Of a stretch of DNA of 64,000 nucleotides, positions 12,231 to 52,044 are shown piece by piece. A program made the translations under genes and the position numbers. The notes below the pieces were generated by a model, which searched no databases, had not been told where the DNA came from, and saw only the letters and a list, made by a program, of their open reading frames with translations. How positions within the stretch are numbered: the first letter of the stretch is position 1; each line of letters starts with the position of its first letter. Source of the DNA: an uncultured Gammaproteobacteria bacterium (lineage in GTDB: Bacteria; Patescibacteriota; Microgenomatia; UBA12405; JAHJSD01); NCBI GenBank assembly GCA_964428655.1, contig CAYRYE010000001.1, positions 137,328-201,327 of the forward strand. Reading direction: 5' to 3'.

Positions 12231-12304
12231 GGGCACATAGCTCAGTTGGTTAGAGTGTCGTCCTGATAAGACGAAGGTCCCTGGTTCGAGTCCAGGTGTG
12301 CCCA
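12231..12304 (+). tRNA. tRNA-Ile (anticodon GAT).
   Basis: Acceptor gggcaca/tgtgccc, anticodon stem tcgtc/gacga, loop ctGATaa, T-arm cctgg-ttcgagt-ccagg. Confidence 0.85.
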
Positions 12305-12484
12305 CAAGATTTATTCTTCGTTTGGTGAGTAACTTGTGAGCTTGTCCTGAGGAACGAAAGGAGTCTTGCTCAGGAGCCAGTTAGAAAAAGCTAATTTTAT
12401 CAAGGTTGCCTAAGGTTGCACCAAGCGTCCAGTCTTTTTTATTCTCTAAGCGCCGAGAAAATAGATCTAAATATTTGTACTTGT

Positions 12485-12988: not shown

Positions 12989-13086
12989 TTTGGCAATCTG
13001 CTTTTAATTAAATTCAGACTAACACCTTTTTTAATTGGCTACAAGGTTTTCTTTTAGAGCCTAGACTACTGTCTTAAGCGTACTTC

Positions 13087-13812
13087 TTGAGGTTTGCTCT
13101 AAATTTGTATTCTGATAAAATCTGCTATTGGATGTATAATGTTGTTTTTTTTGTTTTATTACTAATAACACCTTGGTTTTGGCGTATAGTAAAAATTAAT
13201 GTTTGGATCGCCCTTTTTGTTTTACTTGCTTTTTTAGCTGTGCTTTATTCAAGAAAATTTAGCAAGCTAGGATTCTTCTCAGTGTTTTTTATGATTATTC
13301 TTCTCGTTTTTCAACTGAAAACGACAAGGAAAACTGACTTTTTTTATCTGGATAATGATCAACAAAGAGTCCAACAAGTGAGATTGAGCGAATATCCTCC
13401 GATAAAGATAGATCTGGGGGGAAAGACAATTTGGTTGCCGGTGGGCTATTGGCTTGAAGGACGCCCAGAATCGATTGCCTTTTATCGAGCGAAACAGAAC
13501 TTTTTTGAGCTTGTTGATTCTAATTTGTATTTCTTTGCTAACCATCCCCGGGAAAGAGTAGGAGTTGAGGAATTTGAGAAGCTTCCTTATATTTTCCTAC
13601 CTTTCTTTATCGCCGGTTTACTTGTTCAGGCCAATAAAAAAAACTGGTGGCACTACTTATGTTTTCTAATCTTGCCGGTACTTATTTTGACCTTCTGGGG
13701 TAATGTCAGCGCGTTGGGACCTTTTTTACTGTTCCCATTTCTTATAATCTCTGTTTTTGACGGTTTTTGTTTTTTAATTTTGAAAAGAAGAGATGGAAGT
13801 AGAAAAAAATAA
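13087..13812 (+). CDS. Hypothetical membrane protein (the likely true start is an internal Met near 13133).
   Basis: Several TM segments and a coding-like frame that abuts the downstream GT-C gene. Confidence 0.45.
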   Translation: MRFALNLYSDKICYWMYNVVFFVLLLITPWFWRIVKINVWIALFVLLAFLAVLYSRKFSKLGFFSVFFMIILLVFQLKTTRKTDFFYLDNDQQRVQQVRLSEYPPIKIDLGGKTIWLPVGYWLEGRPESIAFYRAKQNFFELVDSNLYFFANHPRERVGVEEFEKLPYIFLPFFIAGLLVQANKKNWWHYLCFLILPVLILTFWGNVSALGPFLLFPFLIISVFDGFCFLILKRRDGSRKK

Positions 13813-15469
13813 AATATTGAACCTTGTATCTCCGGGTCTGTTAATAATTGCGGCTATTTTATTGTTCACTTATAAATTAGATAAAATACCACCGGGCCTA
13901 TATGTTGATGAAGCCAATATTGGCTATAACGCCTATTCAATTCTTAAAACGGGTAAAGATGAGTATGGCAAGAGCTTTCCGGTTTTATTTAGATTGTTCG
14001 GTTCTTATACCCCTGGTTTATTTATTTACTGTTTAGTTCCTTTTATCCGGTTGTTTGGATTAAAAGTTTGGACAATTAGACTATTATCTGTGTTTTCCGG
14101 GGTGCTACTGACGATACTTGTCTTTTTGTTTCTCAAATCAATAAAAAAAAGAAACAGATTGCTGCCTTTATTAGGAGCCCTTCTTTTTATTATTTCTCCC
14201 TGGACAGTCTTTTACAGTCGACTGGGTTATGAGGTAACTTTCGCTTTTGCTCTTTATAGTTTGGGTGTTTATTGGCTTTGGCTGGGGTTAAAAAGACCAA
14301 AATATATAATATTGGGGTTGATCACCCTCTCTTTTTCCGCTTATGGTGCGCATGCACAAAGGTATTTGGCTCCTCTTTTCATCCTTTCTTTTATGGTGAT
14401 TTTCAGTAAAAAGATTTTTAAAAAAAGCTATAAGAAATGGCTTTTGGCTGGTTTTCTTCTGGCATTTTTTATCCAAATCCCCCAGATTCTTCTTATTAAT
14501 ACTCCTGCATTTTGGAATAAGGGAGATATGTTTTATTCCGAGCGAGTTATCAGCTGGAGTCAGGACTGTTTAAGCGGCATTCCACCTTTTTTGGCTGTGC
14601 CGATTGCTTTTGGACGAGAATTGTTATCTCAATGGTTTGCTTATTACTCACCTCGATCACTCTTTTTTTTGCCTGACCCCGATTTACAAAGATCATTACC
14701 GGAGCTATCTGTTTTTTATGACTGGATGATAGTTTCTTATATTTTTGGTTTATTTATACTTTGGAAAGAGAGAAAAGAAGATTGGGCTAAATGTGTTTTC
14801 CTGTTGTTTTTTCTGGCTCCTCTTCCCACTGCTTTTGTGGGTGATCCTTTTTCTACTCAGCGAGCTTTGGCTCTTCTTTTTCCTATGATAATTATCATTT
14901 CCTTGGGGACTAATAAATTAATTTTTCACCTACAAAAATGTTGGTTAAGAGTAATTGTTCTGGGTGCATTAGTGGGTTATTCATTAATTTTTCTGTGGAG
15001 AAGTTATTTTGTTCTTTTTCCTCAAGAAAGAGCTGTAATATGGGGCCAGGGATATGAACAGTTGGCTGCAATTATCAAAAATAATCCTGATCAAAAATAT
15101 GTAATTGATCAGTTTAGAATGAAGCCTGTTTATATAGAGTTGCTTTTTTATTGGCAATACCCTCCGGGTAAATTACATAAAGAAGTTGATCAGGAAATTC
15201 TTAAGAATTATTACGGGTTAACAAAATTTAGTCCTTACTATAATATTGCCAATGTAGAAATAAGACCTATTGTTTGGGGAAACGATATATACAACGAGCA
15301 GATTTTAGTTGGCGATGAATTGTCAATATCTCCAGAACAAGCGATTGAACATTTTTTGAAAGAAACATTTGAAATAAAAGATCCGTTAGGTAATTTGATA
15401 TTCCGTGGTTATCTTACCAATCCGAAATTAAAGTGTGAGATTAACCCTCAAAACATCGAGTGTCAATAA
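13793..15469 (+). CDS. GT-C-fold membrane glycosyltransferase (ArnT / PMT_2 family).
   Basis: After TM1, the first loop YVDEANIGYNAYSILKTGKDEYGKSFPVLFRLFGSYTPGLFIY carries the DE acidic motif typical of ArnT/PMT-like enzymes; 558 aa, polytopic. Confidence 0.7.
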   Translation: MEVEKNKILNLVSPGLLIIAAILLFTYKLDKIPPGLYVDEANIGYNAYSILKTGKDEYGKSFPVLFRLFGSYTPGLFIYCLVPFIRLFGLKVWTIRLLSVFSGVLLTILVFLFLKSIKKRNRLLPLLGALLFIISPWTVFYSRLGYEVTFAFALYSLGVYWLWLGLKRPKYIILGLITLSFSAYGAHAQRYLAPLFILSFMVIFSKKIFKKSYKKWLLAGFLLAFFIQIPQILLINTPAFWNKGDMFYSERVISWSQDCLSGIPPFLAVPIAFGRELLSQWFAYYSPRSLFFLPDPDLQRSLPELSVFYDWMIVSYIFGLFILWKERKEDWAKCVFLLFFLAPLPTAFVGDPFSTQRALALLFPMIIIISLGTNKLIFHLQKCWLRVIVLGALVGYSLIFLWRSYFVLFPQERAVIWGQGYEQLAAIIKNNPDQKYVIDQFRMKPVYIELLFYWQYPPGKLHKEVDQEILKNYYGLTKFSPYYNIANVEIRPIVWGNDIYNEQILVGDELSISPEQAIEHFLKETFEIKDPLGNLIFRGYLTNPKLKCEINPQNIECQ

Positions 15470-15561
15470 GACTGTTAAATAAAAAGATACCCAGGACACC
15501 TGAAAGTGTGTTTATCTAGCTGTGTTAAAATTAACCATTGGTAGAATTATGATTACGAGTT

Positions 15562-16359
15562 ATGGATACGTTGTCGCAAGCAGAATACGAAAAAGGTGTT
15601 AATCTCGAGAGGAAGATCTTTTATTGTGTATTGGAAGAAATACAGTCTCATATATTTATTACACCGGATTCTCTGGAATATCGGGATTATCTAAGAGGTT
15701 GGATGGGAAAGGTTCGTCAAAATGAAGAGTTGAAAGAAGCGGTTTTTTTTCCTGTTGGATCCGTTGCCGCGGGGATGGTAAAAGAAGCTCAGGGCAGTGA
15801 TGTTGATGGCAATATTTTTTATAGTTGTAGTGAAGAACAATTTCCTAAAATTCAAGAGTTAATATTCAAAATTGAACCTCCTGAGGAGTATCAGCCTTTC
15901 TTTGTTTTTTCAAGGATAGATAATTATTTTGAAGATTTGGCTGAAGATATGAGGAGTGCCATTGCCGTTGACAGTCCTTATAGGCTTCGAGGGATAGCAA
16001 TGCTTTTTGCTCCAAGTTTGTCGGAACAGGCAAATAGAATGGAAAGGGAAAGAGTTGACGGGTGGCGAAAAAAAGCTTTGTCTTTGATAAATTCTTTGCC
16101 AGAAGATCAGAAAAAGGAAGCGTGGGAATTAATAACTCGTTTTTTGGAACAACAATTTGTCCATTATGAGGAAAGTGAAGGAGGAAATACGGGAAAAAGA
16201 AAAAAGAGGGTTGATGAGCGGATTGATGAGGTTGTAGAACAGAGATTCCCTGGGAATGGGGAAAAACAAAAAAGAGCGAAATCTTTTATTAAGACAAAGA
16301 GAAAAAGTTTCAAATATCTTTCATTTCAAGAAATGAAACGAGCGTATAATATTGTTTAA
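15562..16359 (+). CDS. Hypothetical soluble protein (265 aa, charged C-terminus).
   Basis: Clean ORF with codon usage like its neighbours; no family recognised. Confidence 0.45.
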   Translation: MDTLSQAEYEKGVNLERKIFYCVLEEIQSHIFITPDSLEYRDYLRGWMGKVRQNEELKEAVFFPVGSVAAGMVKEAQGSDVDGNIFYSCSEEQFPKIQELIFKIEPPEEYQPFFVFSRIDNYFEDLAEDMRSAIAVDSPYRLRGIAMLFAPSLSEQANRMERERVDGWRKKALSLINSLPEDQKKEAWELITRFLEQQFVHYEESEGGNTGKRKKRVDERIDEVVEQRFPGNGEKQKRAKSFIKTKRKSFKYLSFQEMKRAYNIV

Positions 16360-25074: not shown

Positions 25075-25650
25075 ATGGCTGAACGCGAAATTTCCTTGCT
25101 GCCTAAAGAAAAGTGGGAAGGGACTGTTATTGGGAGGTTGATGAATTGGGTTTTCTCAGTGGGAAGATACATTATTATCTTCACAGAACTGATTGTTGTT
25201 GGCGCTTTTATATCTAGATTTTGGTTGGACAGAACGAACTCTGATTTATCGGAAGAGGTTAGACAGCAAGAGGCAATTTTAGCTAGTACTAGTGATTTTG
25301 AGAAGGAGTTTACGCTTTTTCAGTCAAGACTGAAGACAATTGCTACTGCCTTAAAAGAACCGAGCGATCCTTTATTATCTTTGGAACTAATTGTTGATAG
25401 CCTTCCCGCTGATGCGGTTCTTGTGAAATACGGTTTTTCAGGAGGGGAGAAGAACGAGGCATCGGTGCTGGCCTTGATTTTTTCCGAGTCTAGTCTGGTA
25501 GAATTTGTAGATAATCTTTTGAGTGAAAGTGAAGTCTCTTCGGTTAGGATTGGGACAATTGAAAGAAGCCAGGGAATGGCTGGAATGAAGATTCAGTTTT
25601 TAATTAGTTTCCGGAGGCCTGGTGCCAATGAAAAAACAGACAATAGCTAA
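25075..25650 (+). CDS. PilN-like type IV pilus assembly protein (bitopic).
   Basis: N-terminal EISLLPKE (INLLP-like motif), a single TM, then a coiled-coil/periplasmic domain. Confidence 0.5.
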   Translation: MAEREISLLPKEKWEGTVIGRLMNWVFSVGRYIIIFTELIVVGAFISRFWLDRTNSDLSEEVRQQEAILASTSDFEKEFTLFQSRLKTIATALKEPSDPLLSLELIVDSLPADAVLVKYGFSGGEKNEASVLALIFSESSLVEFVDNLLSESEVSSVRIGTIERSQGMAGMKIQFLISFRRPGANEKTDNS

Positions 25651-26290
25651 GCTTTTCAATAACTATCAAAAAGGATTAACAAAGGCGATTGAGAAGTATC
25701 AAGAACAAGAGGAAGCGTGGCGCTACACAGAGGTAGCCTTGACCCTGTTTACAGTGGCCTTTTTTGTTTTGTTCGCAATCAGACCGGCGGTAGTTACAAT
25801 TTCTAGTTTAGTTGGTGAGATTAAAGAAAAAGAGACAATCAGCTTGAAAATGAGAGGAAAAATAAATGCAATTATTGCTGCTCAAGAAGAATATGCCTTG
25901 GTCCAAGAAAAAGCAGATTTAATTGACAGTTTTTTACCGGTCTCTTTTAATATCAGTCAAGGTTTGACGCAAGTCATTGGCAGTGCAAATCAAAGCCAAG
26001 TAAGCTTGGGAGGAATCAGTCTCGCCGGAGTATCGCTGATTGGCGAAGAGGAAGTCAAAAAAGAGAAAGAAAAAAAGGAGGAGAATGAAAATCTCTCTGA
26101 ATTAAACTTTAGCTTTAGCAGCAAGGGAGACTATTTTAACTTAAAGCAGGTTGTTAAGATGATAGTGGAAACTAGGCGCTGGATAGACTTGACTCAGTAT
26201 CAAATTACTAAGAGCCAGAAAGAAGAGGAGCCCTTAAGCCTGACAATTAATGGAAGGTTATTCTATTGGAATGACAATGAAGAAAAGTAA
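25622..26290 (+). CDS. PilO-like pilus assembly protein (bitopic).
   Basis: Cytoplasmic N-terminus, one TM, coiled coil and a C-terminal domain; overlaps and follows the pilN-like gene. Confidence 0.4.
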   Translation: MPMKKQTIAKLFNNYQKGLTKAIEKYQEQEEAWRYTEVALTLFTVAFFVLFAIRPAVVTISSLVGEIKEKETISLKMRGKINAIIAAQEEYALVQEKADLIDSFLPVSFNISQGLTQVIGSANQSQVSLGGISLAGVSLIGEEEVKKEKEKKEENENLSELNFSFSSKGDYFNLKQVVKMIVETRRWIDLTQYQITKSQKEEEPLSLTINGRLFYWNDNEEK

Positions 26291-26591
26291 TAAAATACCC
26301 AAAAGATTAGTTTGGCTGGCGGTTCTAACTCTTTTAACTGCTTTAATTTGGGTGGCTCTTGATAGCTATCATCAATTGGTTGAAAAAGATCAGCTGAAGA
26401 AATTTAACAAGTTAATCAAGATACTTAATACTGAATTAGAGACTGATATTTTGACCGAGATCGAGGCCAGGAAGGAGTATCAGATTGATGAGATAAAGGA
26501 GTATTTTTTACCTACTCCGACTGCTACTGAACTGGAGAAAATTAGTAGTCCCAGTGCGATATCCACAGAATCAGGAGAGATTAGTGAATAA
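26250..26591 (+). CDS. Small bitopic membrane protein, hypothetical.
   Basis: A single TM (LVWLAVLTLLTALIWVAL) followed by a coiled-coil segment. Confidence 0.35.
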   Translation: MEGYSIGMTMKKSNKIPKRLVWLAVLTLLTALIWVALDSYHQLVEKDQLKKFNKLIKILNTELETDILTEIEARKEYQIDEIKEYFLPTPTATELEKISSPSAISTESGEISE

Positions 26592-27957
26592 AGAGAAAAG
26601 AATACCTACTTTTTTAGGAATAGGCCTTGTTTTGGCTCTGGTAGCCGCCTTGCTTCTTGTAAGGCGGGTGGTTGTTTTTCGGTCTGGGGCCAGTGGAGAA
26701 ACTGTTCCGAAAGAGGTTAAACTAACTAATATCACTAGTGGTTCTTTCGTTGTTTCCTGGCTGACGACAAAAAAGACTAGCGGTTTATTAGGCTTGTTGG
26801 ATAACGGCCAAGAAAGATTATTTCCCGACACTCGAGATAAAACTGGGGAGTTAGCTAAATTTACCACCCACTATATTGTAGTGGATGGGTTGGAGGGTGA
26901 TAGTCAATATGAATTTATTATTATTTCCGGCGGTCAGAAATTTTATGATTCCAGAGAAAACCCTTACCGGGCACATACCGCTAAATCGATTTCGGGAGAA
27001 TTGCCGAAAGCAAATTTGGCATCAGGAGTAGTTAAAACCCTTGATGGCGCATCAGCCAAGGGAGCAATTGCTTATGTTGCTATTGATGGAATTGCGCCTC
27101 TCTCCTCCTTGGTAACTAGTCAAGGGAATTGGGTTATTTCTCTAGCGAAAGCATTTTCTTCGGATTTGAGCCAATTAGCTAATTATCAAGAAGGACATAT
27201 ACTGGAGGAGATTTATGTTCAGGGTGGAGAGATGGGAGTAGCCACGGCCTTGGTTTACACGGAAGATGATGATCCGGTTTCCACAATTACTCTAGGCAGT
27301 CAGTATGATTTTACAGACAAAAATGGTTCCTCAGCCATAGTCGTTCCCACCTCAACGGCAGAATCAAAGTTAGCAGTCGGAGAAGAATGGGAATCATTAA
27401 GTCGTCCTTTTGAGATTATTAATCCCAATGATGGAGAGATGATTAATTTTCCCAGGCCAGAAATTTTTGGTTTTGGTCCCCGGGGAGGTAAAGTTAAAAT
27501 AGTTTTAAAGTCGCCAGTTACTCATGAGGCCGAAGTTGAAATTGATGATCTTGGTAACTGGCGTTGGTCTCCACCTCAAAACTTAATTCCTGGGTCTCAT
27601 ACTTTGAGGATTAAATATACTGATCCTGATACTGGCGAGGAGGAAGATTTTATCCGCACTTTTGTTTTGGCGGCTAGCATTGATGAAGACCAGCCATCAT
27701 TCAGCTCTACTCCTTCGGGGGCAACTGCTACTTTAACGCCGACTTTAACACCTACGGTAGTGCCGACAGCAACTATTGTCTTGTCTCCAACAGCGAGCCC
27801 AACAGCTATTTTAACGGTCACAGCGACTCCACCGCCAAGAACTAGTCAGCCCTCAACTGAATCTGGTGTTCCTGAAAGTGGCTTCTGGGAACCAACCTTT
27901 ATTTTCATCAGTGGAAGTGTTATTTTATTTTTAGTATTGGCTTTAGGCTGGATTTAG
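26554..27957 (+). CDS. Large surface protein: N-terminal TM, FN3-like/beta-rich ectodomain, Thr/Pro-rich stalk and C-terminal TM anchor.
   Basis: N-terminal TM; VKLTNITSGSFVVSWLT (FN3-like strand); [23 protein letters not shown] linker; C-terminal hydrophobic tail. Confidence 0.5.
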   Translation: MRYPQNQERLVNKEKRIPTFLGIGLVLALVAALLLVRRVVVFRSGASGETVPKEVKLTNITSGSFVVSWLTTKKTSGLLGLLDNGQERLFPDTRDKTGELAKFTTHYIVVDGLEGDSQYEFIIISGGQKFYDSRENPYRAHTAKSISGELPKANLASGVVKTLDGASAKGAIAYVAIDGIAPLSSLVTSQGNWVISLAKAFSSDLSQLANYQEGHILEEIYVQGGEMGVATALVYTEDDDPVSTITLGSQYDFTDKNGSSAIVVPTSTAESKLAVGEEWESLSRPFEIINPNDGEMINFPRPEIFGFGPRGGKVKIVLKSPVTHEAEVEIDDLGNWRWSPPQNLIPGSHTLRIKYTDPDTGEEEDFIRTFVLAASIDEDQPSFSSTPSGATATLTPTLTPTVVPTATIVLSPTASPTAILTVTATPPPRTSQPSTESGVPESGFWEPTFIFISGSVILFLVLALGWI

Positions 27958-28007: not shown

Positions 28008-29096
28008 ATGGTTAGAAAAAAACACTTTCTTTTTTTAATTGTTTCTCTTTTTCTCTTGTCAGCTTCTTTAATTGGAGGAATCGTTCTGGTTAAACAAAGA
28101 CAGGAGACAAGAAAAGGAGCTACATGTAACTGCGGCGGCGTGGTGACTCCTTGTGGAACCGAACATTGTAATACCCAAGAATGTAATAAATACAAGTGTA
28201 CTCCTAGCGGTTGGGAAAAAGTCTGTGATAATTGCTGTGGAAATTGTAGTGAACCCCAATGTGGAAATGGTACATGTGATCCTGGTGAAAATTGTGACAA
28301 TTGTCGTCAAGATTGTGAAGTTGATGGCGATTGTAGTGGAGGTGGACCGAGGAATTGCGACCCTGCCTGCGGAATTAATCAGATTTGTTGTAATGGGGTT
28401 TGTTTTGATGGTAGTACATGCGAGGGAAAAGAAACCGGTTCAGCTGATTGCTCTATTGAGGGTCATTCTTTCAAAGTTAAGTGCACTGATATTAGTGGAG
28501 GGGTAACTGGTCATTGGGCAGGTTGCAGCACTGATGAAGAATATGAAACTCTTGCCCAATGTAAGGCTAGCCAAACAGGTGTTGGTTGCGCTACTCATAA
28601 TTTCAGTGTTAATTGTGATGGTCAATGGCATACTGTTGGTAGTTGGTCGCCGAAACCCTGTACTTTTTATCAGGAAGATTTAAATGTTTATTATCCTGGC
28701 GGCACCTTAGCTTGTGGTCGGGCAAAAGTTGATTGTTGGAATGGCGATTGGTCGATTTGTGTTGCACCAACTCCAACTCCAACACCTACGCCTACACCCA
28801 CTCCGACACCGGTTTTTTCTTGTGAGTGTTTAATCCTAGAGATGTATGATTTGGATTGGGAGTTAATTACTGATTACTCTTCCCTTTTGCCGGAAACTGA
28901 AGTTTACCTTGCTGTGACTGGCGAAACTGATCATCCCGGCGGTTTAACTCGGGCGAGATTTAGGATCAATAACGGTGATTGGCAAGAGACAACTGATCGT
29001 CATAACAACAGTTTTTATATAGAGTTTGAGATTCCTGATTATGGAAGTTATTCAGTAGAGGCTCAAGTTTTCAACCCTGATTTGGGTTGGTGGTAA
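28008..29096 (+). CDS. Secreted/anchored cysteine-rich repeat protein with a (TP)n linker and a C-terminal beta-rich domain.
   Basis: Signal anchor, then dense Cys repeats (QCGNGTCDPGENCDNCRQDC, similar to myxobacterial Cys-rich repeats), then a PTPTPTPTPTPTPTP linker. Confidence 0.55.
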   Translation: MVRKKHFLFLIVSLFLLSASLIGGIVLVKQRQETRKGATCNCGGVVTPCGTEHCNTQECNKYKCTPSGWEKVCDNCCGNCSEPQCGNGTCDPGENCDNCRQDCEVDGDCSGGGPRNCDPACGINQICCNGVCFDGSTCEGKETGSADCSIEGHSFKVKCTDISGGVTGHWAGCSTDEEYETLAQCKASQTGVGCATHNFSVNCDGQWHTVGSWSPKPCTFYQEDLNVYYPGGTLACGRAKVDCWNGDWSICVAPTPTPTPTPTPTPTPVFSCECLILEMYDLDWELITDYSSLLPETEVYLAVTGETDHPGGLTRARFRINNGDWQETTDRHNNSFYIEFEIPDYGSYSVEAQVFNPDLGWW

Positions 29097-29109: not shown

Positions 29110-29778
29110 ATGGAACTTTTAGAATCTCCCAAGCCTAAAGAGGAGATAGAACCAGCTAAACTAGCAGAAAAGAAAATTGAAAGGGTCAAGAAACCTTCAA
29201 AGTGGGGAATATTGATTGTTTTGTTTTCAACCGTATTATTAGGGGTGATAGCAGTTGCTAGTGCCATTAGGCTCTATCAACTAAGGGAAAAACCAATTGC
29301 GCCTACTGCTCCTGAAAAAACGCCGGCTCAAGAAATTACGCCGACTCCAACCCCAGTTCCTGCTTGTTTTTTAAGTTTTTCCATTTCTAGTCCCACTCCC
29401 ACGGCAACATTGACACCATCACTAACGCCAACTGGAACTTTAACACCGACATTGACTCCAACCGCAACTCCATCATCAACGCCAACACTGACTCCCACGG
29501 CAACATTGACACCATCACTAACGCCAACTGGAACTTTAACACCGACATTGACTCCAACCGTAACTCCCACACCAACCAGCACTCTCACTCCTGTCCCCAC
29601 ATCTACCCCAGCGCCTACTAATACTCCGGTTCCGACTGGTGTTCTGGTGCCAACTAATACTCCAATGCCAACCCCGACTCGAGTCGAACTGCTTGAAGTT
29701 GGAGTTACCTTTCCTTCACATTTATTAATTCTTTTGGGTTCAGTCATTGGTCTTGGGGGTTTACTACTTCTCTTTTAA
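29110..29778 (+). CDS. Bitopic surface protein consisting mostly of a Thr/Pro-rich repeat stalk with TM helices at both ends.
   Basis: N-terminal TM ([20 protein letters not shown]), TPTLTPT repeats encoded by a 96-bp tandem DNA repeat, and a C-terminal TM. Confidence 0.5.
29395..29570. repeat. 96-bp tandem direct repeat (about 1.8 copies) encoding the Thr/Pro-rich stalk.
   Basis: actcccacggcaacattgacaccatcactaacgccaactggaactttaacaccgacattgactccaacc recurs with a 96-bp period (29395 and 29491). Confidence 0.8.
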
Positions 29779-33837: not shown

Positions 33838-34473
33838 CTAAAACAAACTTTCTTGTTTTATTTCCTTTTTTTGCTTATCAATAGGTGCTTTTTCTTTAAT
33901 TTCTTTTGTTTGTTTTATAATCTCTGGGATCTTAAGGAAGTCTTCTTTTAATTGTTGCATGACATTGCCGTTTCTTAAACCAGCGGCAGGATGATACATA
34001 GGAATTATTAACAGTTCCACTCCTTGCCAAAGAATTTTTCTTGGTTGGCTGTGAACTTTCGAGATGTAAACACTGGGAATAAAGTAGTTCATGGCAAACC
34101 GGCCCAGAGTGATAACCACTTTTGGTTTAATGATTAAAAGTTGTTGTTTTAAATGAGGAGTACAAGCGTCAATTTCAGCTGGAAGCGGGTCGCGATTATT
34201 GGGCGGCCGGTGTTTTAAGATGTTGCCAATAAAGACATTTTCACGCTTGATATTGATTGTTGCTAATAGTTGGTCAAGTAAATTTCCGGCCGCGCCGCAG
34301 AAGGGAATTCCTTTTTGATCTTCCCAGTAGCCTGGGGCTTCGCCAATAAAGACAATTTCTGCGTTTGGATTAGGCCCGCCCGGAACAGAATTGGTAGCCG
34401 TTTTATAAAGAGGGCATTTTTGGCAATTTTTAACTTGTTCAGCAGTTTTTGCTAATTCCTCTTGGTTAGACAT
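33838..34473 (-). CDS. udg: Uracil-DNA glycosylase, family 4 (Fe-S containing).
   Basis: CQKCPLYKT...GEAPGYWEDQKGIPFCGAAGNLLDQLL...HPAAGLRN motifs. Confidence 0.8.
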   Translation of the reverse strand: MSNQEELAKTAEQVKNCQKCPLYKTATNSVPGGPNPNAEIVFIGEAPGYWEDQKGIPFCGAAGNLLDQLLATINIKRENVFIGNILKHRPPNNRDPLPAEIDACTPHLKQQLLIIKPKVVITLGRFAMNYFIPSVYISKVHSQPRKILWQGVELLIIPMYHPAAGLRNGNVMQQLKEDFLKIPEIIKQTKEIKEKAPIDKQKKEIKQESLF

Positions 34474-39910: not shown

Positions 39911-41776
39911 GTGAGAGAGAACTTACTTGATGATTTAAATCCGGCCCAGAAAAAAGCGGTCACTTTTGTTGGTGGGCCGGTTTTAGTTTTAGCCGGTGCT
40001 GGCAGCGGCAAGACTAAAGTTTTAACTCAGCGAGCCGCTTGGCTGGTAGCAGCTAGAAAAGCAAAACCCAGCCAGCTTCTTCTTCTGACTTTTACCAACA
40101 AAGCTGCCGGTGAGATGAAAAAGAGGCTGTTGAAGCTTTTGCGATCTGTTTCCAGTTCTGAGAAACCTGCTTCTGGTCTTTTCGCCGGCACTTTCCACTC
40201 TTTTTGCGCTTACATTTTGCGGCGTGACGGGGAAGAGATTGGTATTCCAAGATTATTTGTGATCTATGATGGAGCTGATCAGCTAGCCCTAATCAAAAGT
40301 TTAGTTAAAAAATTTGATTTATCTAGCGAGAGGTTTAAACCAGCTTCAATTAAAGCAATGATTGAGTCAGCCAAAAACAATTTAATTGACCCGGAAACTT
40401 TTTTGGACTCAGCTCGAACTTCTTGGCATCAATCTGTTGGTCTAATCTATCAGAAATACCAAAAGCAGTTGATCAAATCTAATGCTTTGGATTTTAATGA
40501 TTTGCTGCTTTCAGTGGTTAAACTTTTCGAAAACGAACCGAAAATTTTGGAAAAGTATCAGGATCGCTATCGGTTTGTTTTGGTTGATGAATATCAGGAT
40601 ACCAATAGAGCTCAGTATATCTTAACCAGGCTTTTAGCCAAAAAATATCAAAATTTAACTGCCGTTGGTGACATTGCCCAAGCGATTTACGGATGGCGTG
40701 GTGCCGATTACCGAAATTTGATGAGTTTAACCTCTGATTTTCCGAAAATGAGGATAATTAATCTTGAACAAAATTATCGTTCCACTCAGACAATTTTGGA
40801 CGCCGCTAATGCGGTCATTTCCAAGAACGAAAAACACCCGATTTTAAAATTGTTTACCCAAAATGGCCAAGGAGAGGAAGTTATTATTTATCGGGCCAGT
40901 TCCGAGATTGATGAGGCAGAGTTTGTTACTGAAAGGATTAAGCGAGTGGTTGATTTCAGAGGTGTTAATCCAGCCGAGATCGTTGTTTTGTATCGAACCA
41001 ATGCCCAATCACGAACCCTTGAGGAGGCCTTTATTCGCCATGGCTTGCCCTATATTCTTGTTGGCGGTGTCAAGTTTTACGAACGAGCTGAAGTTAAAGA
41101 TGTTTTGTCATTACTTCGGGTTTTTTATAATTCTTTAGACCAAGCCTCTTGGGAGAGGATTGAGAAAAATTTTGGCAAGCGAAGAAAGGAAAAAGTTGAG
41201 GAATTTATTGAAGAAAGTGGAGGAAAGAAATGGAAAACAGAAAAATTGCTTGAAGAAATTCTTGAATTCAGTGGTTATTTAGAAAAATTTGATCCTGTTG
41301 ATAAGAGTGATTACCGTCGTTTAGAGAATATTAAAGAGTTGACTTCAGTGGCAAAACAATTTCCTGATTTGAGTGAATTTTTAGAAAATGTTGCTTTGGT
41401 TCAGCAGGAATATTCAGCTCAAGAAAAGGAAAAAGAGAAATTAGCTGGGGAAGCGGTTAGATTGATGACTCTTCATTCAAGCAAAGGATTGGAATTCGAT
41501 ACGGTTTTTATTATTGGCATAGAAGAGGGTTTATTACCTCACTCAAGAAGCATAGATAATTTAGAACAGCTCGAAGAAGAACGCCGTCTTTGTTATGTGG
41601 GAATGACTCGGGCAAAAAGGCGTTTATTGCTGGTTTATGCCGCCCAAAGGCTTTACTTTGGCAAAATCAGCTGCAACAGTATTTCTAGATTTTTAGAGGA
41701 TATTCCTGATAAATTGATTGCTTGGGAGGAAAGTGAATCTGATTGGAGTGATGACGATTGGGACGAAGAATGGTAG
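39911..41776 (+). CDS. UvrD/PcrA/Rep-family ATP-dependent DNA helicase (GTG start).
   Basis: Walker A AGAGSGKT, helicase motifs through to LHSSKGLEFD and VGMTRAKRRL. Confidence 0.85.
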   Translation: MRENLLDDLNPAQKKAVTFVGGPVLVLAGAGSGKTKVLTQRAAWLVAARKAKPSQLLLLTFTNKAAGEMKKRLLKLLRSVSSSEKPASGLFAGTFHSFCAYILRRDGEEIGIPRLFVIYDGADQLALIKSLVKKFDLSSERFKPASIKAMIESAKNNLIDPETFLDSARTSWHQSVGLIYQKYQKQLIKSNALDFNDLLLSVVKLFENEPKILEKYQDRYRFVLVDEYQDTNRAQYILTRLLAKKYQNLTAVGDIAQAIYGWRGADYRNLMSLTSDFPKMRIINLEQNYRSTQTILDAANAVISKNEKHPILKLFTQNGQGEEVIIYRASSEIDEAEFVTERIKRVVDFRGVNPAEIVVLYRTNAQSRTLEEAFIRHGLPYILVGGVKFYERAEVKDVLSLLRVFYNSLDQASWERIEKNFGKRRKEKVEEFIEESGGKKWKTEKLLEEILEFSGYLEKFDPVDKSDYRRLENIKELTSVAKQFPDLSEFLENVALVQQEYSAQEKEKEKLAGEAVRLMTLHSSKGLEFDTVFIIGIEEGLLPHSRSIDNLEQLEEERRLCYVGMTRAKRRLLLVYAAQRLYFGKISCNSISRFLEDIPDKLIAWEESESDWSDDDWDEEW

Positions 41777-44056: not shown

Positions 44057-46963
44057 TTACTGCCACGCTTCGCAGAGAAGCTTGTATTCACAGTAATTAC
44101 AGGGAAATGGGATACTAGGTTTTGGCGGGAAGGGGCTTTTTTCTATCTCCTCAGCGGCTTTAATCATCTTTTTTCTAAACTCATTTAATTGTTCTTTAGT
44201 TCTTTGACTGGAGAGCTTAATGCAGTTTTGGAGAAAATAGAGACTCAAAATAATTTTCTCTACTGGCCTGTTGAAGCTGAGCTCACTGATGCTAGAAGTT
44301 GCCAGCGCGTAAAGAGTTAGTTGATCATCATGATCGATTGTCTTCTGGTTTGGAATTCTGGCACCAGTTTTGTAGTCGATAATTTCTACTCTTCCATCAG
44401 GAAAAAGATCAGCCCTATCAATTATTCCCCCAACTTTCAGTTTTGGAGTAATTCTAAAAGAAAATGGCTGTTCTAGGGCAATAACATTAATAATAGATTT
44501 ATCTTTTAATTCTTTTTGGTAATAATTTTTGAGAATTTGAACACTTTGTTTTTTAGCTTCTTTTTCATGAGCCTTAGATTTGAATCCTTGTGATTGCCAA
44601 TTTTCTTCAAGTATTTTTAAAAAAGTTTTAAAGTCTAATTTTTCTTTGCTAAGAATTTGTTCTTGATAAAATTCTTTCAAGGTTCTATGGAGAGTGATAC
44701 CAATTGTTTGAGCTGGCGAGGGAGGTGTTGGCAGTCTGATGATGTATTTATATTTATATTGAAGAGGGCAAATATCGAATGCGTTTAGTTGGGAATATGA
44801 AAGATAAGTTACTGGAAAATTAAAAATAGCCGGTTTTTCTTTTTCTTCCTGTTTTTGCCAAGAAAGGAGAGTGAGCTGTATATCACGTGTTGCATGTCGC
44901 ATATTGTGAATTGATTTTTCTCCCAAAGATTCAACAACAAAGGGAGAGATTTTTTTCTCTCTTTTAGCGTCATTGCTGTAGAATTTAGCCCCGGTAAAGT
45001 AGAGATGATCCATGGCTCTGGTCATGCCCACATAAAATAGTCTTCTTTCTTCTTGTTCATGTGGATCGCCTTCAGGCAAAAGCTCTTTGATTAGTGTTTG
45101 GGGGATAGGTATTTGCTCTTGACGCTTTCTGGTAGGAAAGCGTTGATTGACAAGATTAGCCATAAAAACAATCGGGAATTCTAGCCCTTTGGCCGAATGA
45201 ACAGTTAAAATATTGACGGCATCGACTTCAGTCCAATCAGTTTCTGTTGCCAAAGGGCTTTCGCCCAGTTCCAATCGAAGCATAATCCAATCCAGAAGAT
45301 GAAAAACAGAAGCGTTTTCATTATTGGTTTCAAATGATTTGACCTTGTCAAAAAATTTGGCCAGATCAAGGGCTTGCTGATGCTTAGTTTCTGTTTTTGG
45401 ATTGACTATTGATTTTAAAAGACCACTGTCTTCGAGAAAATAGTAGAGAATTTGACCGCCGGTTTCTTTTGACAGCAGCTTGAGGTGACGATGAATGATT
45501 TTCACCAATTTATTTGTTTTATTTTCTACGGTTGTTTCCGGGGAATTTGCTGCCTTTTTCTCGGCAGCTTCAAAGAGAGATAAATTTTCTCTTTTTGCAA
45601 AACTTCGAAGCATGGCTAATTGACGGGCAGAGATTTCTAATTCTGGAATACTAGCGACTTTGAAAAAAGCAATGTCGTCTTGGAGATCAACTAAGGTTTG
45701 CAGATAAGCAATTAGATTTTTAATTTCTGACTTGCGGAATAAATGACCTGGACCCAAGAATTGATATGGAATATTGCTTCTGGCCAAAGCTCTTATAAAT
45801 GGTTCGGAATGGTTATTGGCCCTGACTAAAATGGCAATGTCTTTGTATTGGTATTTTTCTTTAGTCAGTTTTTTTATTTCCTGGGCAACTAAATCGGCCT
45901 CGTTTTCTACCCGATTAGTAAAAAATAGTTTAATTGGCGTTCCTTTAATTGCTCGGGCGCTTTTTAAGTTTTTGGCAATACCTAATTTTACTTCTAAAGT
46001 ATCAGGATCATTGTGTTTAATTAGTTGATGAGATTGATCAAGAATGGTTTGGGTAGAACGGTAATTTAGAATTAGAGAAACAACTTTGCCTTTTTTATAA
46101 TCTTCTTGGAAAGTTAAAACATTAGAAACGGCCGCCCCCCTGAATTTATAGATTGATTGAGAGTCATCGGCAGTAACGGTAAGATTGGGATTTTCTTTGG
46201 GTGGAGCCAGCAATTTTATTAATTCATATTGAGCAATATTAGTGTCTTGAAATTCGTCGACCAAAACAAAGGCAAACTTTTTTTTATACTCTCTTAAAAC
46301 ATTGGATCTTTCTCGTAAAAGCTTAAGCGCATAACTGATGAGATCGGCAAAGTCAAAAGCGCCCTCTCTCTCTTTTAATTCCTGATAAGTTTTAAATGTT
46401 TTGGCCAGCTCAATAGTTTTTTTGGCTTCTAACTTGTCTTCTTTTGTTTTGGCATTTTTTGAAACTTTTTCAGCAAATTGGAGATATTGTTCTGGCGTAA
46501 TATCTTCGTCTCGAAGTCGGGAAAAATGATCAATGATTCCCCCTAAAAACTTGTCTGGAGTAGAAACGGGCCGAAAATATGTCAACTTGAGTTTAAAAAG
46601 CCTTTTTCTTAAAAAAAGAATAGTTTCCGCCTTAGACATTAATTTAAAATTAGGATTAAGACCAATGTGAGAAGCTTCATCTCGTAATAATTGATTGCAA
46701 AAAGAATGAAAAGTGGAAATCCAGAGCTGGCTATATCCTAACGGCAGAGCTTGATCTACTCTTTCTTCCATTTCTCTAGCCGCTTTTTCAGTAAAAGTTA
46801 AAGCTAGTATTTGAGAAGGGGAAAGACCATTTTTGTCAATTAGCCACTTTATTCTTTCAGTGATAACCGTAGTTTTTCCTGTTCCAGCTCCGGCGATAAT
46901 CAACAACGGCCCCTTTTGATATTTAACGGCTTTCTTTTGCTGCTCGTTAAGCTTCATCTTCAA
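44057..46963 (-). CDS. UvrD-family helicase with C-terminal PD-(D/E)xK (RecB-like) nuclease domain (AddA/PcrA-like helicase-nuclease).
   Basis: AGAGTGKTT Walker A and helicase motifs; the C-terminal GGIIDRADL...EIIDYKTG nuclease motif; terminal Cys residues (CNYCEYKLLC). Confidence 0.85.
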   Translation of the reverse strand: MKMKLNEQQKKAVKYQKGPLLIIAGAGTGKTTVITERIKWLIDKNGLSPSQILALTFTEKAAREMEERVDQALPLGYSQLWISTFHSFCNQLLRDEASHIGLNPNFKLMSKAETILFLRKRLFKLKLTYFRPVSTPDKFLGGIIDHFSRLRDEDITPEQYLQFAEKVSKNAKTKEDKLEAKKTIELAKTFKTYQELKEREGAFDFADLISYALKLLRERSNVLREYKKKFAFVLVDEFQDTNIAQYELIKLLAPPKENPNLTVTADDSQSIYKFRGAAVSNVLTFQEDYKKGKVVSLILNYRSTQTILDQSHQLIKHNDPDTLEVKLGIAKNLKSARAIKGTPIKLFFTNRVENEADLVAQEIKKLTKEKYQYKDIAILVRANNHSEPFIRALARSNIPYQFLGPGHLFRKSEIKNLIAYLQTLVDLQDDIAFFKVASIPELEISARQLAMLRSFAKRENLSLFEAAEKKAANSPETTVENKTNKLVKIIHRHLKLLSKETGGQILYYFLEDSGLLKSIVNPKTETKHQQALDLAKFFDKVKSFETNNENASVFHLLDWIMLRLELGESPLATETDWTEVDAVNILTVHSAKGLEFPIVFMANLVNQRFPTRKRQEQIPIPQTLIKELLPEGDPHEQEERRLFYVGMTRAMDHLYFTGAKFYSNDAKREKKISPFVVESLGEKSIHNMRHATRDIQLTLLSWQKQEEKEKPAIFNFPVTYLSYSQLNAFDICPLQYKYKYIIRLPTPPSPAQTIGITLHRTLKEFYQEQILSKEKLDFKTFLKILEENWQSQGFKSKAHEKEAKKQSVQILKNYYQKELKDKSIINVIALEQPFSFRITPKLKVGGIIDRADLFPDGRVEIIDYKTGARIPNQKTIDHDDQLTLYALATSSISELSFNRPVEKIILSLYFLQNCIKLSSQRTKEQLNEFRKKMIKAAEEIEKSPFPPKPSIPFPCNYCEYKLLCEAWQ

Positions 46964-47854: not shown

Positions 47855-48388
47855 TTATTTATTTTTTGTTATTTTGGTAATTACTTTTAGGGAAGAATTG
47901 GGGACAAGGTGGATGTTGCCGTCTTTATCCTTAAGGGCAATAGTGCGTAGGCTGATCTTAGTGACCTTTCCGGAAATACTGTTTGCGACTTTGATTTGAT
48001 CTCCAACGTTAAATTGATTTTCAAAAAGCACGAAAAACCCGGCGATTAAATCAGAAGCCAAGCCTTTGGCGCCTATGCCAATTGCCAATCCGAAAATACC
48101 AACTCCGGTTATTAATGGCAGAATATTAAAACCAAGCTCTGACAGTATTAAAAGTACAGAGGTAAAGTTGACGATAATTTTCACAGTGTTAATTAAAAGA
48201 CTGGTGATGGTTTTGACCCGCTGTTTTGTTTGGGCAACAGTTTCAGATTTGCTTTTTCCAACTTTGCGGCGAAGTTTTTTGAGCGAAAAGATAGCAAATC
48301 TCTGTATTACCCACCCGGCAATAATAATAGTTGCTATTTTTAAAATCCTTTGCCAAATAGCAATTGCTGTTTCAATACTAATTCTCAT
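47855..48388 (-). CDS. Small-conductance mechanosensitive channel (MscS family), minimal form.
   Basis: Pore-helix and beta-domain segment GIFGLAIGIGAKGLASDLIAGFFVLFENQFNVGDQIKV...GKVTKISLRTIALKDKDGNIHLVPNS. Confidence 0.8.
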   Translation of the reverse strand: MRISIETAIAIWQRILKIATIIIAGWVIQRFAIFSLKKLRRKVGKSKSETVAQTKQRVKTITSLLINTVKIIVNFTSVLLILSELGFNILPLITGVGIFGLAIGIGAKGLASDLIAGFFVLFENQFNVGDQIKVANSISGKVTKISLRTIALKDKDGNIHLVPNSSLKVITKITKNK

Positions 48389-48462
48389 TTTTTCTTTTGT
48401 TTAAATTTAAGTAAATTGTATCATAGCGCGGGATGTAGAGTTTCCGGTGTGGAAATAAAGCA

Positions 48463-50280
48463 TTAGCGTTTGTAGGCGCTGGCTTGAAGGGTGAACAAAT
48501 TGACATATTTGCCTTTTTGCGTCATTAGTTTTTTATGACTTCCGCTTTCAATTATTTTGCCCTTATCTATGACATAAATTTTGTCGGCATTGCGGACAGT
48601 AGAAAATCTGTGAGAAATCATAATAGCCATTTTGTTTTTTTCAAATTGATGAATTTGTTTGAAGATTTTGTGTTCAGAGGCAGGGTCAATGGCTGAAGTT
48701 GGCTCGTCGAGAATAAGCAATGGCGCATTTCTGAAAAAAGCCCTGCTTAGGGCTATTTTCTGCCATTGGCCGGTAGATAAGTCAGTTCCTCCTTCAAATT
48801 TTTTGGAAAGAATAGTTTTTTCTTTCTTGTCGAGTTTCTTAATAAATTTGCCGGCATCCGATTTGTTAATTGCTAAATTAAACATTTCTTTTTCAAAAGG
48901 CCTGTCAATGTTTCCCAATCTTATGTTTTCCTTAACAGTGTAGGCATAGCGATTAAAATCCTGAAACAAGACGCCGACATTTTTTCGCCAATAATTTAAA
49001 TTTATTTCTTTTAGGTTCTGATCATTGATTAGGATTTTGCCCTTGGAAACATCATAAAACCGAGCGAGTAGTTTAACAATGGTAGTTTTTCCTGCGCCGT
49101 TTTCTCCAATTAAGGCTATTTTCTGATTTGGCTTGATTGTTAAATTAAAGTTTTTAAGAACATATTTTTCGCTGTTAGGATATTTAAACCAGACATCTCG
49201 GAATTCAATTGTAAATGGCAGCTCAACCTTTTTGCCTTTTGTATTTTTGTTTATAATTGGCTTTAGATTTAAAACAGTAAATAAATCTTTAACATAAAGC
49301 AGGTCTTCGAAATTTTGGGACAAATTTTTAAACAACCCTTTGAAGCTTTCACTTAGACTGTTAATTCTACTAATATAAAAATTCAGAGTGCCGATACTGA
49401 TGATGCCGCTAATGGCTTTTATAAAAACGGAACAGAAAATAAACGCATTAATAGTGAAGGCGAAAAGCGAAGTAACAATTCTATTTTTGGACATTTTTTT
49501 AATTTCCTTTTTTTGATGGCCGAAAAATTCCCCGTAGAGTTTTTCAATTCTTTTTAAAAGAGTTTTTTGAATATTGAAGATGTGGATTTCTTGGAGGCAT
49601 TTATCGTTTTGCAGATACCAAGAAGTGTTCCAAAAATCCCTCTTGATTGCTCCCTTTGCTCCATGAATATTCCAAACAGATCGGCTGAACTTTATTCCTA
49701 CTATAAATTCTGGAATTGTAGAGACAAAAATGAGCAGGAAATAAATTGGTCCCAAGCCAACAATAATAATAGTATTGGAAATTACTGAAACTAAATTTTG
49801 TAGCAGCCACATTTGTCTGTTAGCAAAATTAATTGGTCTCCAGGTGTATGTTTCCTTAACTTTGTTGAGAAGATTGTTGAGCCTTGGGTTTTCCCAATGT
49901 TCAAAGTCCAAGGAAGCGAATTTTTCGTTTGTTTTGATGGTTAAAAAGCGGCCAAAGTCCAGATAGGTGACACGGTCGCAATAATCAATAATTCGCCAGG
50001 TGAAGCGACCAATAAGTTCAAGAGCAAAAAAAATAATGATTAGTTTTGCGAAAAAGAAAAAATTAGCCGTGTTTTGCTGTTGGCCTACGCTGATAAGCGC
50101 ATCAATGATAATTTTCAAGATATAAGAATAACCAATTGGGGTTAAGGCAGTAATAATTACTCCAACCATTTTTACCAAAGTGGCACTTTTGTTGGATTGG
50201 TAAGACAGTAAAGCAGTTCTGGTTGAGTAATACCAGTATTCTTTTAATTTGGCTAAATATGTTTTGGTTCTTTTGAGCAT
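48463..50280 (-). CDS. ABC transporter, fused permease/ATP-binding protein (type I exporter, multidrug/lipid-exporter-like).
   Basis: 6-TM N-terminal domain; Walker A GENGAGKTT, signature LSTGQWQKIALSRA, Walker B LLILDEPTSAID. Confidence 0.9.
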   Translation of the reverse strand: MLKRTKTYLAKLKEYWYYSTRTALLSYQSNKSATLVKMVGVIITALTPIGYSYILKIIIDALISVGQQQNTANFFFFAKLIIIFFALELIGRFTWRIIDYCDRVTYLDFGRFLTIKTNEKFASLDFEHWENPRLNNLLNKVKETYTWRPINFANRQMWLLQNLVSVISNTIIIVGLGPIYFLLIFVSTIPEFIVGIKFSRSVWNIHGAKGAIKRDFWNTSWYLQNDKCLQEIHIFNIQKTLLKRIEKLYGEFFGHQKKEIKKMSKNRIVTSLFAFTINAFIFCSVFIKAISGIISIGTLNFYISRINSLSESFKGLFKNLSQNFEDLLYVKDLFTVLNLKPIINKNTKGKKVELPFTIEFRDVWFKYPNSEKYVLKNFNLTIKPNQKIALIGENGAGKTTIVKLLARFYDVSKGKILINDQNLKEINLNYWRKNVGVLFQDFNRYAYTVKENIRLGNIDRPFEKEMFNLAINKSDAGKFIKKLDKKEKTILSKKFEGGTDLSTGQWQKIALSRAFFRNAPLLILDEPTSAIDPASEHKIFKQIHQFEKNKMAIMISHRFSTVRNADKIYVIDKGKIIESGSHKKLMTQKGKYVNLFTLQASAYKR

Positions 50281-50290
50281 TTGCTTATTT

Positions 50291-50392
50291 ATCTTTTTCT
50301 GGTTCTGGTAATGAAGCAGTGATGGTTATTTTTTGACCTAAAAGATTAAAAGAAGACATAACATTGTTCATTTGGTTATAGGCGTTGTTGAG
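50291..50392. repeat. Direct repeat copy A (about 100 bp), duplicating the 3' end of rmuC.
   Basis: Identical to 51070-51168 apart from 1 substitution and a 3-nt homopolymer indel. It still encodes ...GQKITITASLPEPEKDK followed by a stop. Confidence 0.9.
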
Positions 50393-50443
50393 CAGGAAGA
50401 TTATTAATAAACTCATTTTGTTCTATATCCTGGGGTTCCTAAA

Positions 50444-51019
50444 TTACTCTTTTATTCCTCTTGTTTGCTTTCTTCTTCTCTTTCTATCTTTTTCCTCTAG
50501 TTTTTCAAATTTTCTTGGTGAAAGGACAACTATTGTTTCTCCACCTATTTCTTGTTTCTCTTGGCAAGAGCCTGTCCCGTCTGTGCTTGCGCATTTATTT
50601 GCTGGTCTTTTAAAGGAGCAAGAAGCAAATCTCACAGGTCCATTTTCAGTGCGAACGGGGGAAGTAATCATAAGAAATCCCCTTTTTCCTCTTTGACATC
50701 TTTTTGAACTTATTATTCTTCCCTCAAACTCATCCTTTTTTAATTCGGCCAATATTTGCCCTACTTTGCTTTTTCCAACTATAATAGATTCTCCGTTTTT
50801 CCCTTGTATTCCTTGGCAATCTCCTCCTTTTCTGCACAGTGGCGGTGATAGTACAACACCCCCATCTTGCTGCTCTCTACAAGTAGCAATACAGAAAGTT
50901 GGCCCTCTTTTACGTAGTAGCCTTTCTTCGGGAAATACGGCATAATGCACGTCTAGTTGTTGTCCTCTGCGAGTACAAAAACTTTTTACTCCTAAGTATG
51001 TTCTATACTCTCTTCTCAT
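50444..51019 (-). CDS. Cysteine-rich, Arg/Lys-rich hypothetical protein (191 aa) carried on the inserted segment.
   Basis: Higher GC than the flanks, 9 Cys, and an ATGA start/stop overlap with the rmuC stop; no family recognised. Confidence 0.4.
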   Translation of the reverse strand: MRREYRTYLGVKSFCTRRGQQLDVHYAVFPEERLLRKRGPTFCIATCREQQDGGVVLSPPLCRKGGDCQGIQGKNGESIIVGKSKVGQILAELKKDEFEGRIISSKRCQRGKRGFLMITSPVRTENGPVRFASCSFKRPANKCASTDGTGSCQEKQEIGGETIVVLSPRKFEKLEEKDRKRRRKQTRGIKE

Positions 51020-52044
51020 ACCCTATAATAACATTTTTTATTTTTAAGTAAAGTTTCTAGTTTTTTTTTATCTTCTGGTTCTGGTAATGAAGCAGTGATG
51101 GTTATTTTTTGACCTAAAAGATTAAAAGAAGACATAACATTGTTCATTTGGTTATAGGCATTGTTGAGATGTTTGTTTAGAGTGGAGAGGTATGTTTCCA
51201 CATTTTCGTAGTCTTTTTTAAGAGCTTGAATAGTTCTTATAATTTGGCGGGCCCTTATTTCAATTTTTTGACCTTCGAAGCTCATTAAAATAGCTTTTAA
51301 ATAGGCATAGAAAGTGGCTGGAGAAACAGGTAGGACTTTTTTGTCATGGGCAAAATCCAGCAACTTCGGGTCAGAATTAATTACTTCGTAGTAGATTGCT
51401 TCTGAAGGTATGTACATCAGGGCATAATCCAGAGTTCCTTCTTCGGTAAGAATATATTTTTTCGAAATATCTCTGATATGTTTTTTAACGTCTTTTAAAA
51501 ATATTCGGCGGTAGGCTTCTTTTTCTTTCTCGTTTTCGGCGGCGTTGAGTTTTTTAAAGTTTTCCATTGGAAATTTGGAATCAATAGGAATAATGCCGGC
51601 CGTTGTTTTTACGGCAGCATCAACAATCGCTCCGCTTTTAAAAGTATACTGAAGGTGAAAAGAACTTTTGGGTAAGGTTTGGCCTAAAAGTTCTTTGAGA
51701 ACTTGTTCGCCAATGTTGCCTCTTAGTTTTGGTGAAGAAAGGAATTCTTGGAGTTGCTTCATTGACCGGCCGATCTCGCTCATCTCGCCAATATTTTTTT
51801 GGACATCACCGATAACTTTGGCGGCATTGTCCAATCTTTCATTAAGAGATTGAGTGCTTTGGTGGAGTACTTGAGCAATGTTTTTGTTTGTTTGTTCAAT
51901 GGTTTGTTGATTGCTTTTTAACCATTCAATAAGAGTGTTGTCAGGCTTAATTTTTTCCTGAATAGATTCAATTTGTTTTTTAAACCAAAAGAAAAGGATA
52001 ATGAAAGCAAAAATAATGGTTCCTAAAACTAAAATGGAATTCAT
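51016..52044 (-). CDS. rmuC: DNA recombination protein RmuC.
   Basis: N-terminal TM, long coiled coil and the C-terminal YALMYIPSEAIYYEV region typical of RmuC. The last 18 aa are encoded by the inserted segment. Confidence 0.75.
   Translation of the reverse strand: MNSILVLGTIIFAFIILFFWFKKQIESIQEKIKPDNTLIEWLKSNQQTIEQTNKNIAQVLHQSTQSLNERLDNAAKVIGDVQKNIGEMSEIGRSMKQLQEFLSSPKLRGNIGEQVLKELLGQTLPKSSFHLQYTFKSGAIVDAAVKTTAGIIPIDSKFPMENFKKLNAAENEKEKEAYRRIFLKDVKKHIRDISKKYILTEEGTLDYALMYIPSEAIYYEVINSDPKLLDFAHDKKVLPVSPATFYAYLKAILMSFEGQKIEIRARQIIRTIQALKKDYENVETYLSTLNKHLNNAYNQMNNVMSSFNLLGQKITITASLPEPEDKKKLETLLKNKKCYYRV
51070..51168. repeat. Direct repeat copy B (within the rmuC coding sequence).
   Basis: See copy A. 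Confidence 0.9.

Follow-up and report, generated by a model that had tools for sequence, protein, structure and literature searches.

An orphan gene delimited by a duplicated rmuC 3′ end in a Microgenomates genome

The duplicated 3′ end of rmuC

The locus described here lies on the minus strand of a 64-kb stretch of Microgenomates DNA (the window, that is, the whole of the DNA that was analysed, positions 137,328 to 201,327 of contig CAYRYE010000001.1; all coordinates below are positions in it). It is composed of rmuC (51016-52044), an orphan gene of 191 codons named ORF191 (ORF for open reading frame; 50444-51019), a remnant ORF of 43 codons that starts with an ATG at 50416 and ends in EKDK* (50285-50416), and a gene that codes for an ATP-binding cassette (ABC) exporter of 605 amino acids (48463-50280). 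The limits of these ORFs, including the start of the exporter, agree with those given in an earlier reading of the same DNA (the original prediction), which had also described near-identical direct repeats of about 100 bp at the 3′ end of rmuC. A repeat finder and a gapped alignment both bear out this duplication. The former reports a sole pair, 50285-50392 and 51061-51168, as a direct repeat of 108 nt with 94% ungapped identity, and the latter pairs 50296-50392 with 51072-51168 over 97 nt with one substitution (C/T on the sense strand), beyond which come a 3-nt indel and GATAAA, so that the repeat is about 105 nt long overall. No other dispersed direct repeat reaches 35 nt anywhere in the window.

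The RmuC protein encoded at this locus (342 amino acids) belongs to the Pfam family PF02646 (E=4.7e-58, with 197 bits against a gathering cutoff of 26) and is intact, although it carries a C-terminal extension of 18 residues that is not native. Alignment with the closest homologs confirms that copy B of the repeat (51061-51168, with a near-perfect core at 51072-51168) is the in-frame 3′ portion of the gene, containing its last ~32 conserved codons (NNAYNQ...SLPEPE). Copy B has no stop codon, and RmuC is therefore read 18 residues further, through the tail DKKKLETLLKNKKCYYRV (51019-51072), whose sequence the original prediction gave correctly, up to a TGA at 51016-51018 that overlaps the ATG of ORF191 by 4 nt (ATGA). 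This tail is absent from every RmuC relative compared. It looks harmless, and two relatives (P0010 and P0011) that likewise carry extensions seem to tolerate them.

Copy A (50285-50392) makes up most of the remnant ORF, and the ABC exporter starts 4 nt after its stop codon. It encodes the ending ...SLPEPEKDK*. Among the 14 closest RmuC homologs (71-80% identity), most have 324-329 amino acids (range 314-336) and most end in ...LGQKIT(I/T)T(A/T)(S/A)LPEPE followed by one to three charged residues and the stop, the common terminal pattern being ...LPEPE(E/K)(D/K/N)*. An RmuC rebuilt with the ending of copy A would have 327 amino acids, within the length typical of these relatives. Because copy A encodes this family-typical ending, it is the original-type rmuC end, displaced from its gene, as had been proposed. 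The DNA of the relatives differs from both copies at 15-25% of positions, whereas the copies differ from each other at only one; the duplication is therefore recent and of within-species origin, both copies stemming from this lineage.

Between the copies lies an insert of ~0.68 kb (679 nt) with a single protein gene, ORF191, whose stop codon is separated from copy A by 51 nt. This 3′ spacer (50393-50443) holds the ATG of the remnant ORF. No terminal inverted repeats or palindromic site were found at the ends of the insert. A higher GC content had been claimed for it, but its composition (36.9% GC) does not exceed that of the window (38.1%), and ORF191 (39.4%) falls among the window genes (38.4 +/- 3.6%). 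The flanks are unusually AT-rich, and the one stretch that rises above them is a local peak of 0.445 at 50800-50999. What distinguishes the insert is its strand skew, the sense strand containing far more G than C.

At least five independent metagenome assemblies yielded contigs that contain the sequence of the locus with 100% identity. Long contigs that were assembled independently (428 kb, 548 kb and 8.3 kb) run through both copies of the repeat. Since the arrangement recurs in these assemblies and the 428- and 548-kb contigs span both copies, it is not an assembly artefact. ORF191 is invariant in all the contigs, and the sole polymorphism among those covering the locus is at position 50404, in the spacer between ORF191 and copy A (A in the window, T in one short contig, L005, on the sense strand). 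Three short contigs (L003-L005) end inside copy B, and one of these, L004, is chimeric at the repeat. This 1-kb contig (Ga0114922_10461495, also listed as L090) runs in its positions 673-1052 from the insert into copy A and then switches, at the codons for ...QKITITAS, to a foreign DnaK, in its C-terminal part (SGLSDEEVNKKVKEAEQYAEEDKK...), a join that is probably an assembly chimera produced through a shared k-mer of ~24 nt.

Such breaks would favour an artefact, and a pair of ~100-nt repeats at the 3′ end of a gene is also reminiscent of the template and variable repeats of diversity-generating retroelements, which are common in the candidate phyla radiation (CPR). Either explanation of the duplication is nevertheless extremely improbable: the long contigs from independent assemblies speak against the first, and the second was rejected because the window contains no reverse transcriptase and the mismatch is C/T, not adenine-specific.

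ORF191: coding signature, orphan status and expression

ORF191 would code for a basic protein (pI 10.0) rich in arginine (12%) and glycine (11%), with nine cysteines (4.7%) and three CQxxQxxGExIVV-like motifs (CREQQDGGVVLSP, CQGIQGKNGESIIV and CQEKQEIGGETIVVLSP) that correspond to an internal repeat of weak significance (E=0.007). When codon usage is modelled on 48 genes of the window, the frame of ORF191 scores +0.116 bits per codon, while the other five frames score between -0.03 and -0.49 and contain 2-15 stops. GC at third codon positions (GC3, 0.245) is far below that at first (0.474) and second (0.464) positions, the pattern expected of a real coding sequence in an AT-rich genome, and an open run of 192 codons arises in only 1 of 5000 dinucleotide-preserving shuffles. 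This frame-specific signature indicates that ORF191 is a genuine coding sequence, although its codon score is ~2.4 standard deviations below that of the window genes. An antisense gene or an alternative genetic code was considered and discarded, the best antisense frame containing one TGA and one TAA and having a negative codon score.

No homologs of ORF191 were found in a word-indexed set of 5.8 billion proteins, and a full HMMER scan of 1.84 billion representatives gave no real one; its sole hit (P0122) is a translated, eukaryote-like tandem repeat and was rejected. There is likewise no significant match in Pfam, PHROGs, NCBIfam, PADLOC or PDB, the sub-threshold ones being DUF1408 (E=0.062) and phrog_5450 (E=0.12). 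Neither ORF191 nor the insert matches any of the phage records, plasmid records or viral contigs searched; no second sequence resembling either of them is present in the window, and none resembling ORF191 in ~95 related loci. ORF191 also shows no similarity to the ancestral locus of the ABC exporter, for example as a remnant of a PIG-L gene. Thus, the claim of a Cys-rich ORF of no recognisable family stands, now with a coding signal confined to its frame.

In being short, basic and devoid of detectable homologs, ORF191 resembles the ORFans of CPR (Patescibacteria) genomes, and it lies amid many family-less ORFs of the window. It differs from most ORFans in that a clean duplication flanks it, dating and delimiting its insertion. 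Runs of ORFs of 167-558 amino acids that have no Pfam match at E<=1e-6 occupy 10912-16359 and 25075-27957.

The complete lack of homologs, together with the odd amino-acid composition and the low codon score, would also be expected if ORF191 were non-functional, in which case the insert would be a non-coding or structured RNA, or else junk in which an ORF arose by accident or is decaying. A structural model points the same way: AlphaFold, which the original prediction had suggested as a check, was run on the single sequence and gave a mean confidence (pLDDT) of 45, and this unreliable model yielded no usable fold match (Foldseek against PDB returned TM scores of only 0.1-0.2, meaningless for a model of such low confidence). 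On the other hand, the frame-specific codon signal, the depressed GC3 and the rarity of such an open run in shuffled sequences are at odds with junk. A known RNA (intron, riboswitch or large non-coding RNA) can be discarded, with no Rfam match at E<=1 on either strand, and so can a structured one, the folding z-scores of the two strands (-0.47 and +0.06) showing no excess over shuffles. We therefore consider a non-functional ORF191 distinctly unlikely. As to what its product might do, the charge, the arrangement of cysteines and the repeated beta-strand-like motifs lead us to guess at a small, basic, Cys-rich protein with metal or nucleic acid as its ligand and with an accessory role, not that of a conserved RmuC partner. 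Such a partnership had been suggested, but there is no co-occurrence evidence for it, since ORF191 has no homologs.

A promoter-like site (TTTACT-16-TG-n-TATTAT, 51025-51052, minus strand) precedes ORF191, with its -10 box ending 5 nt upstream of the ATG. The promoter scan as a whole was not above chance. However, -10-like hexamers (TAnnnT) that end 4-12 nt before the start codon are found at 24% of the window genes against 5% of random positions, suggesting that leaderless or short-leader mRNAs are widespread in this CPR genome and that the transcript of ORF191 may be one of them. A Shine-Dalgarno sequence was seen at only 7 of the 52 start codons of the window, and its use in this genome is thus rare. 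Probably, then, ORF191 is expressed from this host-type -10 box and/or by read-through from rmuC and coupling to it. The overlap between the rmuC stop and the ORF191 start, from which translational coupling had been deduced, is confirmed and coupling is possible, but it is not needed given a host-typical -10 box so close to the ATG. The simplest reading of the 18-residue tail of RmuC would be that it is just the AT-rich promoter and leader of ORF191, translated since the rmuC stop was lost, and the ATGA overlap would therefore be incidental and no evidence of a functional partnership.

Origin of the insert

The region downstream of rmuC (window 47855-51016) was compared with that of related loci (L086, L088, L092, L094, L095 and L097-L099). 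The gene that follows rmuC varies among relatives, being mscS in three of them (L088, L092 and L093), an AddB-like helicase in another three (L086, L095 and L096) and a 5′-nucleotidase in one (L094). The ABC exporter adjoins rmuC only in this genome, and its closest orthologs (71-72% identity) are located elsewhere, flanked by PIG-L and YibE_F genes. In this Microgenomates clade, the DNA downstream of rmuC is thus a rearrangement hot spot and, because the adjacency of exporter and rmuC is lineage-specific, the insertion of ORF191 lies at a lineage-specific rearrangement junction.

That the junction with the exporter is itself derived allows the polarity of events to be turned around: a long-tailed rmuC with ORF191 would be the older state and the exporter would have come in later along with copy A, for instance through recombination with a sister strain whose rmuC borders the exporter gene. 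This order of events is quite improbable, for the family-typical ending is found in copy A and not in copy B, ORF191 is absent from all relatives, and fewer steps are required if the junction between rmuC (ending in EKDK*) and the exporter came first.

The reading that we prefer, which we regard as an even chance, is that a foreign or orphan gene was captured once, recently and in this lineage only, by recombination at the rmuC stop, with ~105 nt of rmuC homology as an anchor that was left duplicated. A segment of ~0.68 kb with the orphan gene and its short AT-rich leader would have entered the chromosome by recombination at the rmuC stop codon, duplicating the last ~105 nt of the gene. Copy B would have kept rmuC intact at the cost of its native stop, so that 18 codons are read into the leader of ORF191 up to the TGA, and copy A would have stayed in front of the exporter start as a dead 3′ fragment with the original sequence. 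Most likely, the segment entered either by a Campbell-type single crossover of a small circle that carried a piece of rmuC or by homology-facilitated illegitimate recombination of incoming DNA, in the hot spot downstream of rmuC.

A single crossover with a circular molecule is expected to leave a homologous anchor of ~100 nt duplicated beside the foreign DNA, and an anchor of this size, duplicated next to foreign DNA, is what the rmuC locus contains. Homology-facilitated illegitimate recombination and single crossovers are known from natural transformation (PMC3410848 is one of the papers on the process). The classical process with linear DNA, however, replaces sequence without duplicating it, unlike what is seen at rmuC, so that the model requires a circular or concatemeric intermediate, and no donor molecule is known.

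The original prediction had interpreted the same anatomy as a site-specific insertion flanked by attL/attR-like repeats. Spelled out, this would be a minimal, non-autonomous integrative element with a circular form of ~776 bp, a mimic of the rmuC 3′ end as attP and an integrase supplied in trans from elsewhere. The architecture is indeed that of e14 and phage 21 in the icd gene of Escherichia coli, which insert at the 3′ end of the gene, supply a replacement end that keeps it intact and leave the displaced original as the icdC pseudogene at the other boundary, with direct repeats flanking the inserted DNA (PMC13626634). The rmuC insert resembles them in its position at the end of a gene that stays intact, in the survival of the displaced original fragment and in its direct repeats. 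The likeness ends there, since e14 has ~15 kb, carries its own integrase and excisionase and is known to excise, whereas the rmuC insert has 0.68 kb and one orphan gene, with no recombinase in the window and no evidence of excision or recurrence, and its copies are near-identical over their whole length instead of being a short core with diverged arms.

Several searches bear on this point. No recombinase, transposase, integrase or phage-like protein is encoded by ORF191 or by any ORF of at least 110 amino acids in the window, and ORF191 has no recombinase domain in Pfam at E<=1. Insertion sequences and miniature inverted-repeat transposable elements were rejected (no terminal inverted repeats, a duplication of ~105 nt and no transposase), as was an integron gene cassette (no palindromic attC-like site at either end and no IntI integrase in the window). 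An empty-site allele was not found in any of the collections searched. An exact look-up of the rebuilt 327-residue ancestral RmuC in a collection of 15 billion proteins found nothing, the RmuC of this locus is alone in its cluster at 90% identity, and all contigs that contain the exact ABC exporter show the same occupied arrangement. A metagenome scan with the repeat core for an empty or circular junction returned only the chimeric 1-kb contig mentioned above, and no second copy of the rmuC end was seen in ~85 related rmuC loci.

A site-specific element is thus backed by its architecture, including a repeat boundary at the stop codon and a gene left intact, and by nothing further: neither the insert nor the surrounding 64 kb encodes an integrase, the cargo and the insert DNA are found nowhere else, and neither an occupied/empty polymorphism nor a circular junction or a reuse of the site was detected in the contigs and related loci. 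We consider it rather unlikely.

The same att-like architecture could be left by a larger island or prophage at the rmuC 3′ end, reduced by an internal deletion to one gene and both repeats. CPR genomes are streamlined and prone to deletion. Nonetheless, ORF191 has no PHROG, phage or viral relative, the packing is tight and intact (the ATGA overlap on one side and, on the other, 51 nt from the ORF191 stop to copy A), unlike the usual outcome of a random internal deletion, and near-identical repeats imply a recent event with little time for decay, all of which makes such a remnant unlikely.

A bolder version holds that the unit of 0.78 kb formed by one repeat copy and ORF191 is a minimal selfish integrative cassette that targets the 3′ end of rmuC and repairs its target on insertion. 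ORF191 would then be a small, Cys-rich factor of a novel type that acts in recombination or integration, or else host recombination would be hijacked, and the circular form would encode a mimic of the rmuC tail of 57 codons translationally coupled to ORF191. The chance that this is correct seems very slight.

Several points weigh against a simple capture by recombination. No donor, circular form or pre-insertion allele was found, and the proposed route is read from the anatomy of the locus. The 3′ boundary of the repeat lies within 12 nt of the rmuC stop, and rmuC has come through neatly, an outcome that a dedicated integrative element would also bring about. The low codon score of ORF191 fits a foreign origin but could equally mean that the sequence is decaying. 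Moreover, ORF191 is a gene predicted from sequence alone, and the contigs are 100% identical in it, so they offer no variation for a test of selection.

On balance, the locus appears to be the scar of a single recombination event and not a mobile element that could be demonstrated as such. It is a well delimited insertion of an orphan gene and adds one more case to a known kind of event. If only a scar, it is still a neat, datable case of a streamlined CPR genome that gained an orphan gene without harming the neighbouring ones. The duplication marks the exact limits of the insert and shows it to be recent, and the DNA downstream of rmuC is flagged as a rearrangement hot spot in Microgenomates. 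The locus would be more important if ORF191 took part in inserting itself or if mobility of this module were observed, and nothing found points that way.

Other genes of the window

The window is otherwise housekeeping DNA, with an hrcA-grpE-dnaK-dnaJ cluster, nusA-infB, pnp, murJ, glycosyltransferases and UvrD/AddB-like helicases. Two genes for UvrD-type helicases, one of them with a C-terminal PD-(D/E)XK nuclease domain (AddB-like), lie within 7 kb of each other (39911-41776 on the plus strand and 44057-46963 on the minus strand) and, together with rmuC and a gene for a glycosylase of the uracil-DNA glycosylase family (33838-34473), form a loose cluster of DNA-repair genes.

Another Cys-rich protein, unrelated to ORF191, is encoded at 28008-29096 on the plus strand. 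It has 362 amino acids, a signal-peptide-like N-terminus, 34 cysteines (9.4%) and a (TP)n linker, and its codon score (0.054) is the lowest among the window genes. The adjacent ORF (29110-29778, plus strand) is predicted to code for a membrane-anchored protein and contains, at 29395-29616, a Thr/Pro-rich tandem repeat with a periodicity of 12/30 nt and a higher-order unit of 96 nt at 90% identity.

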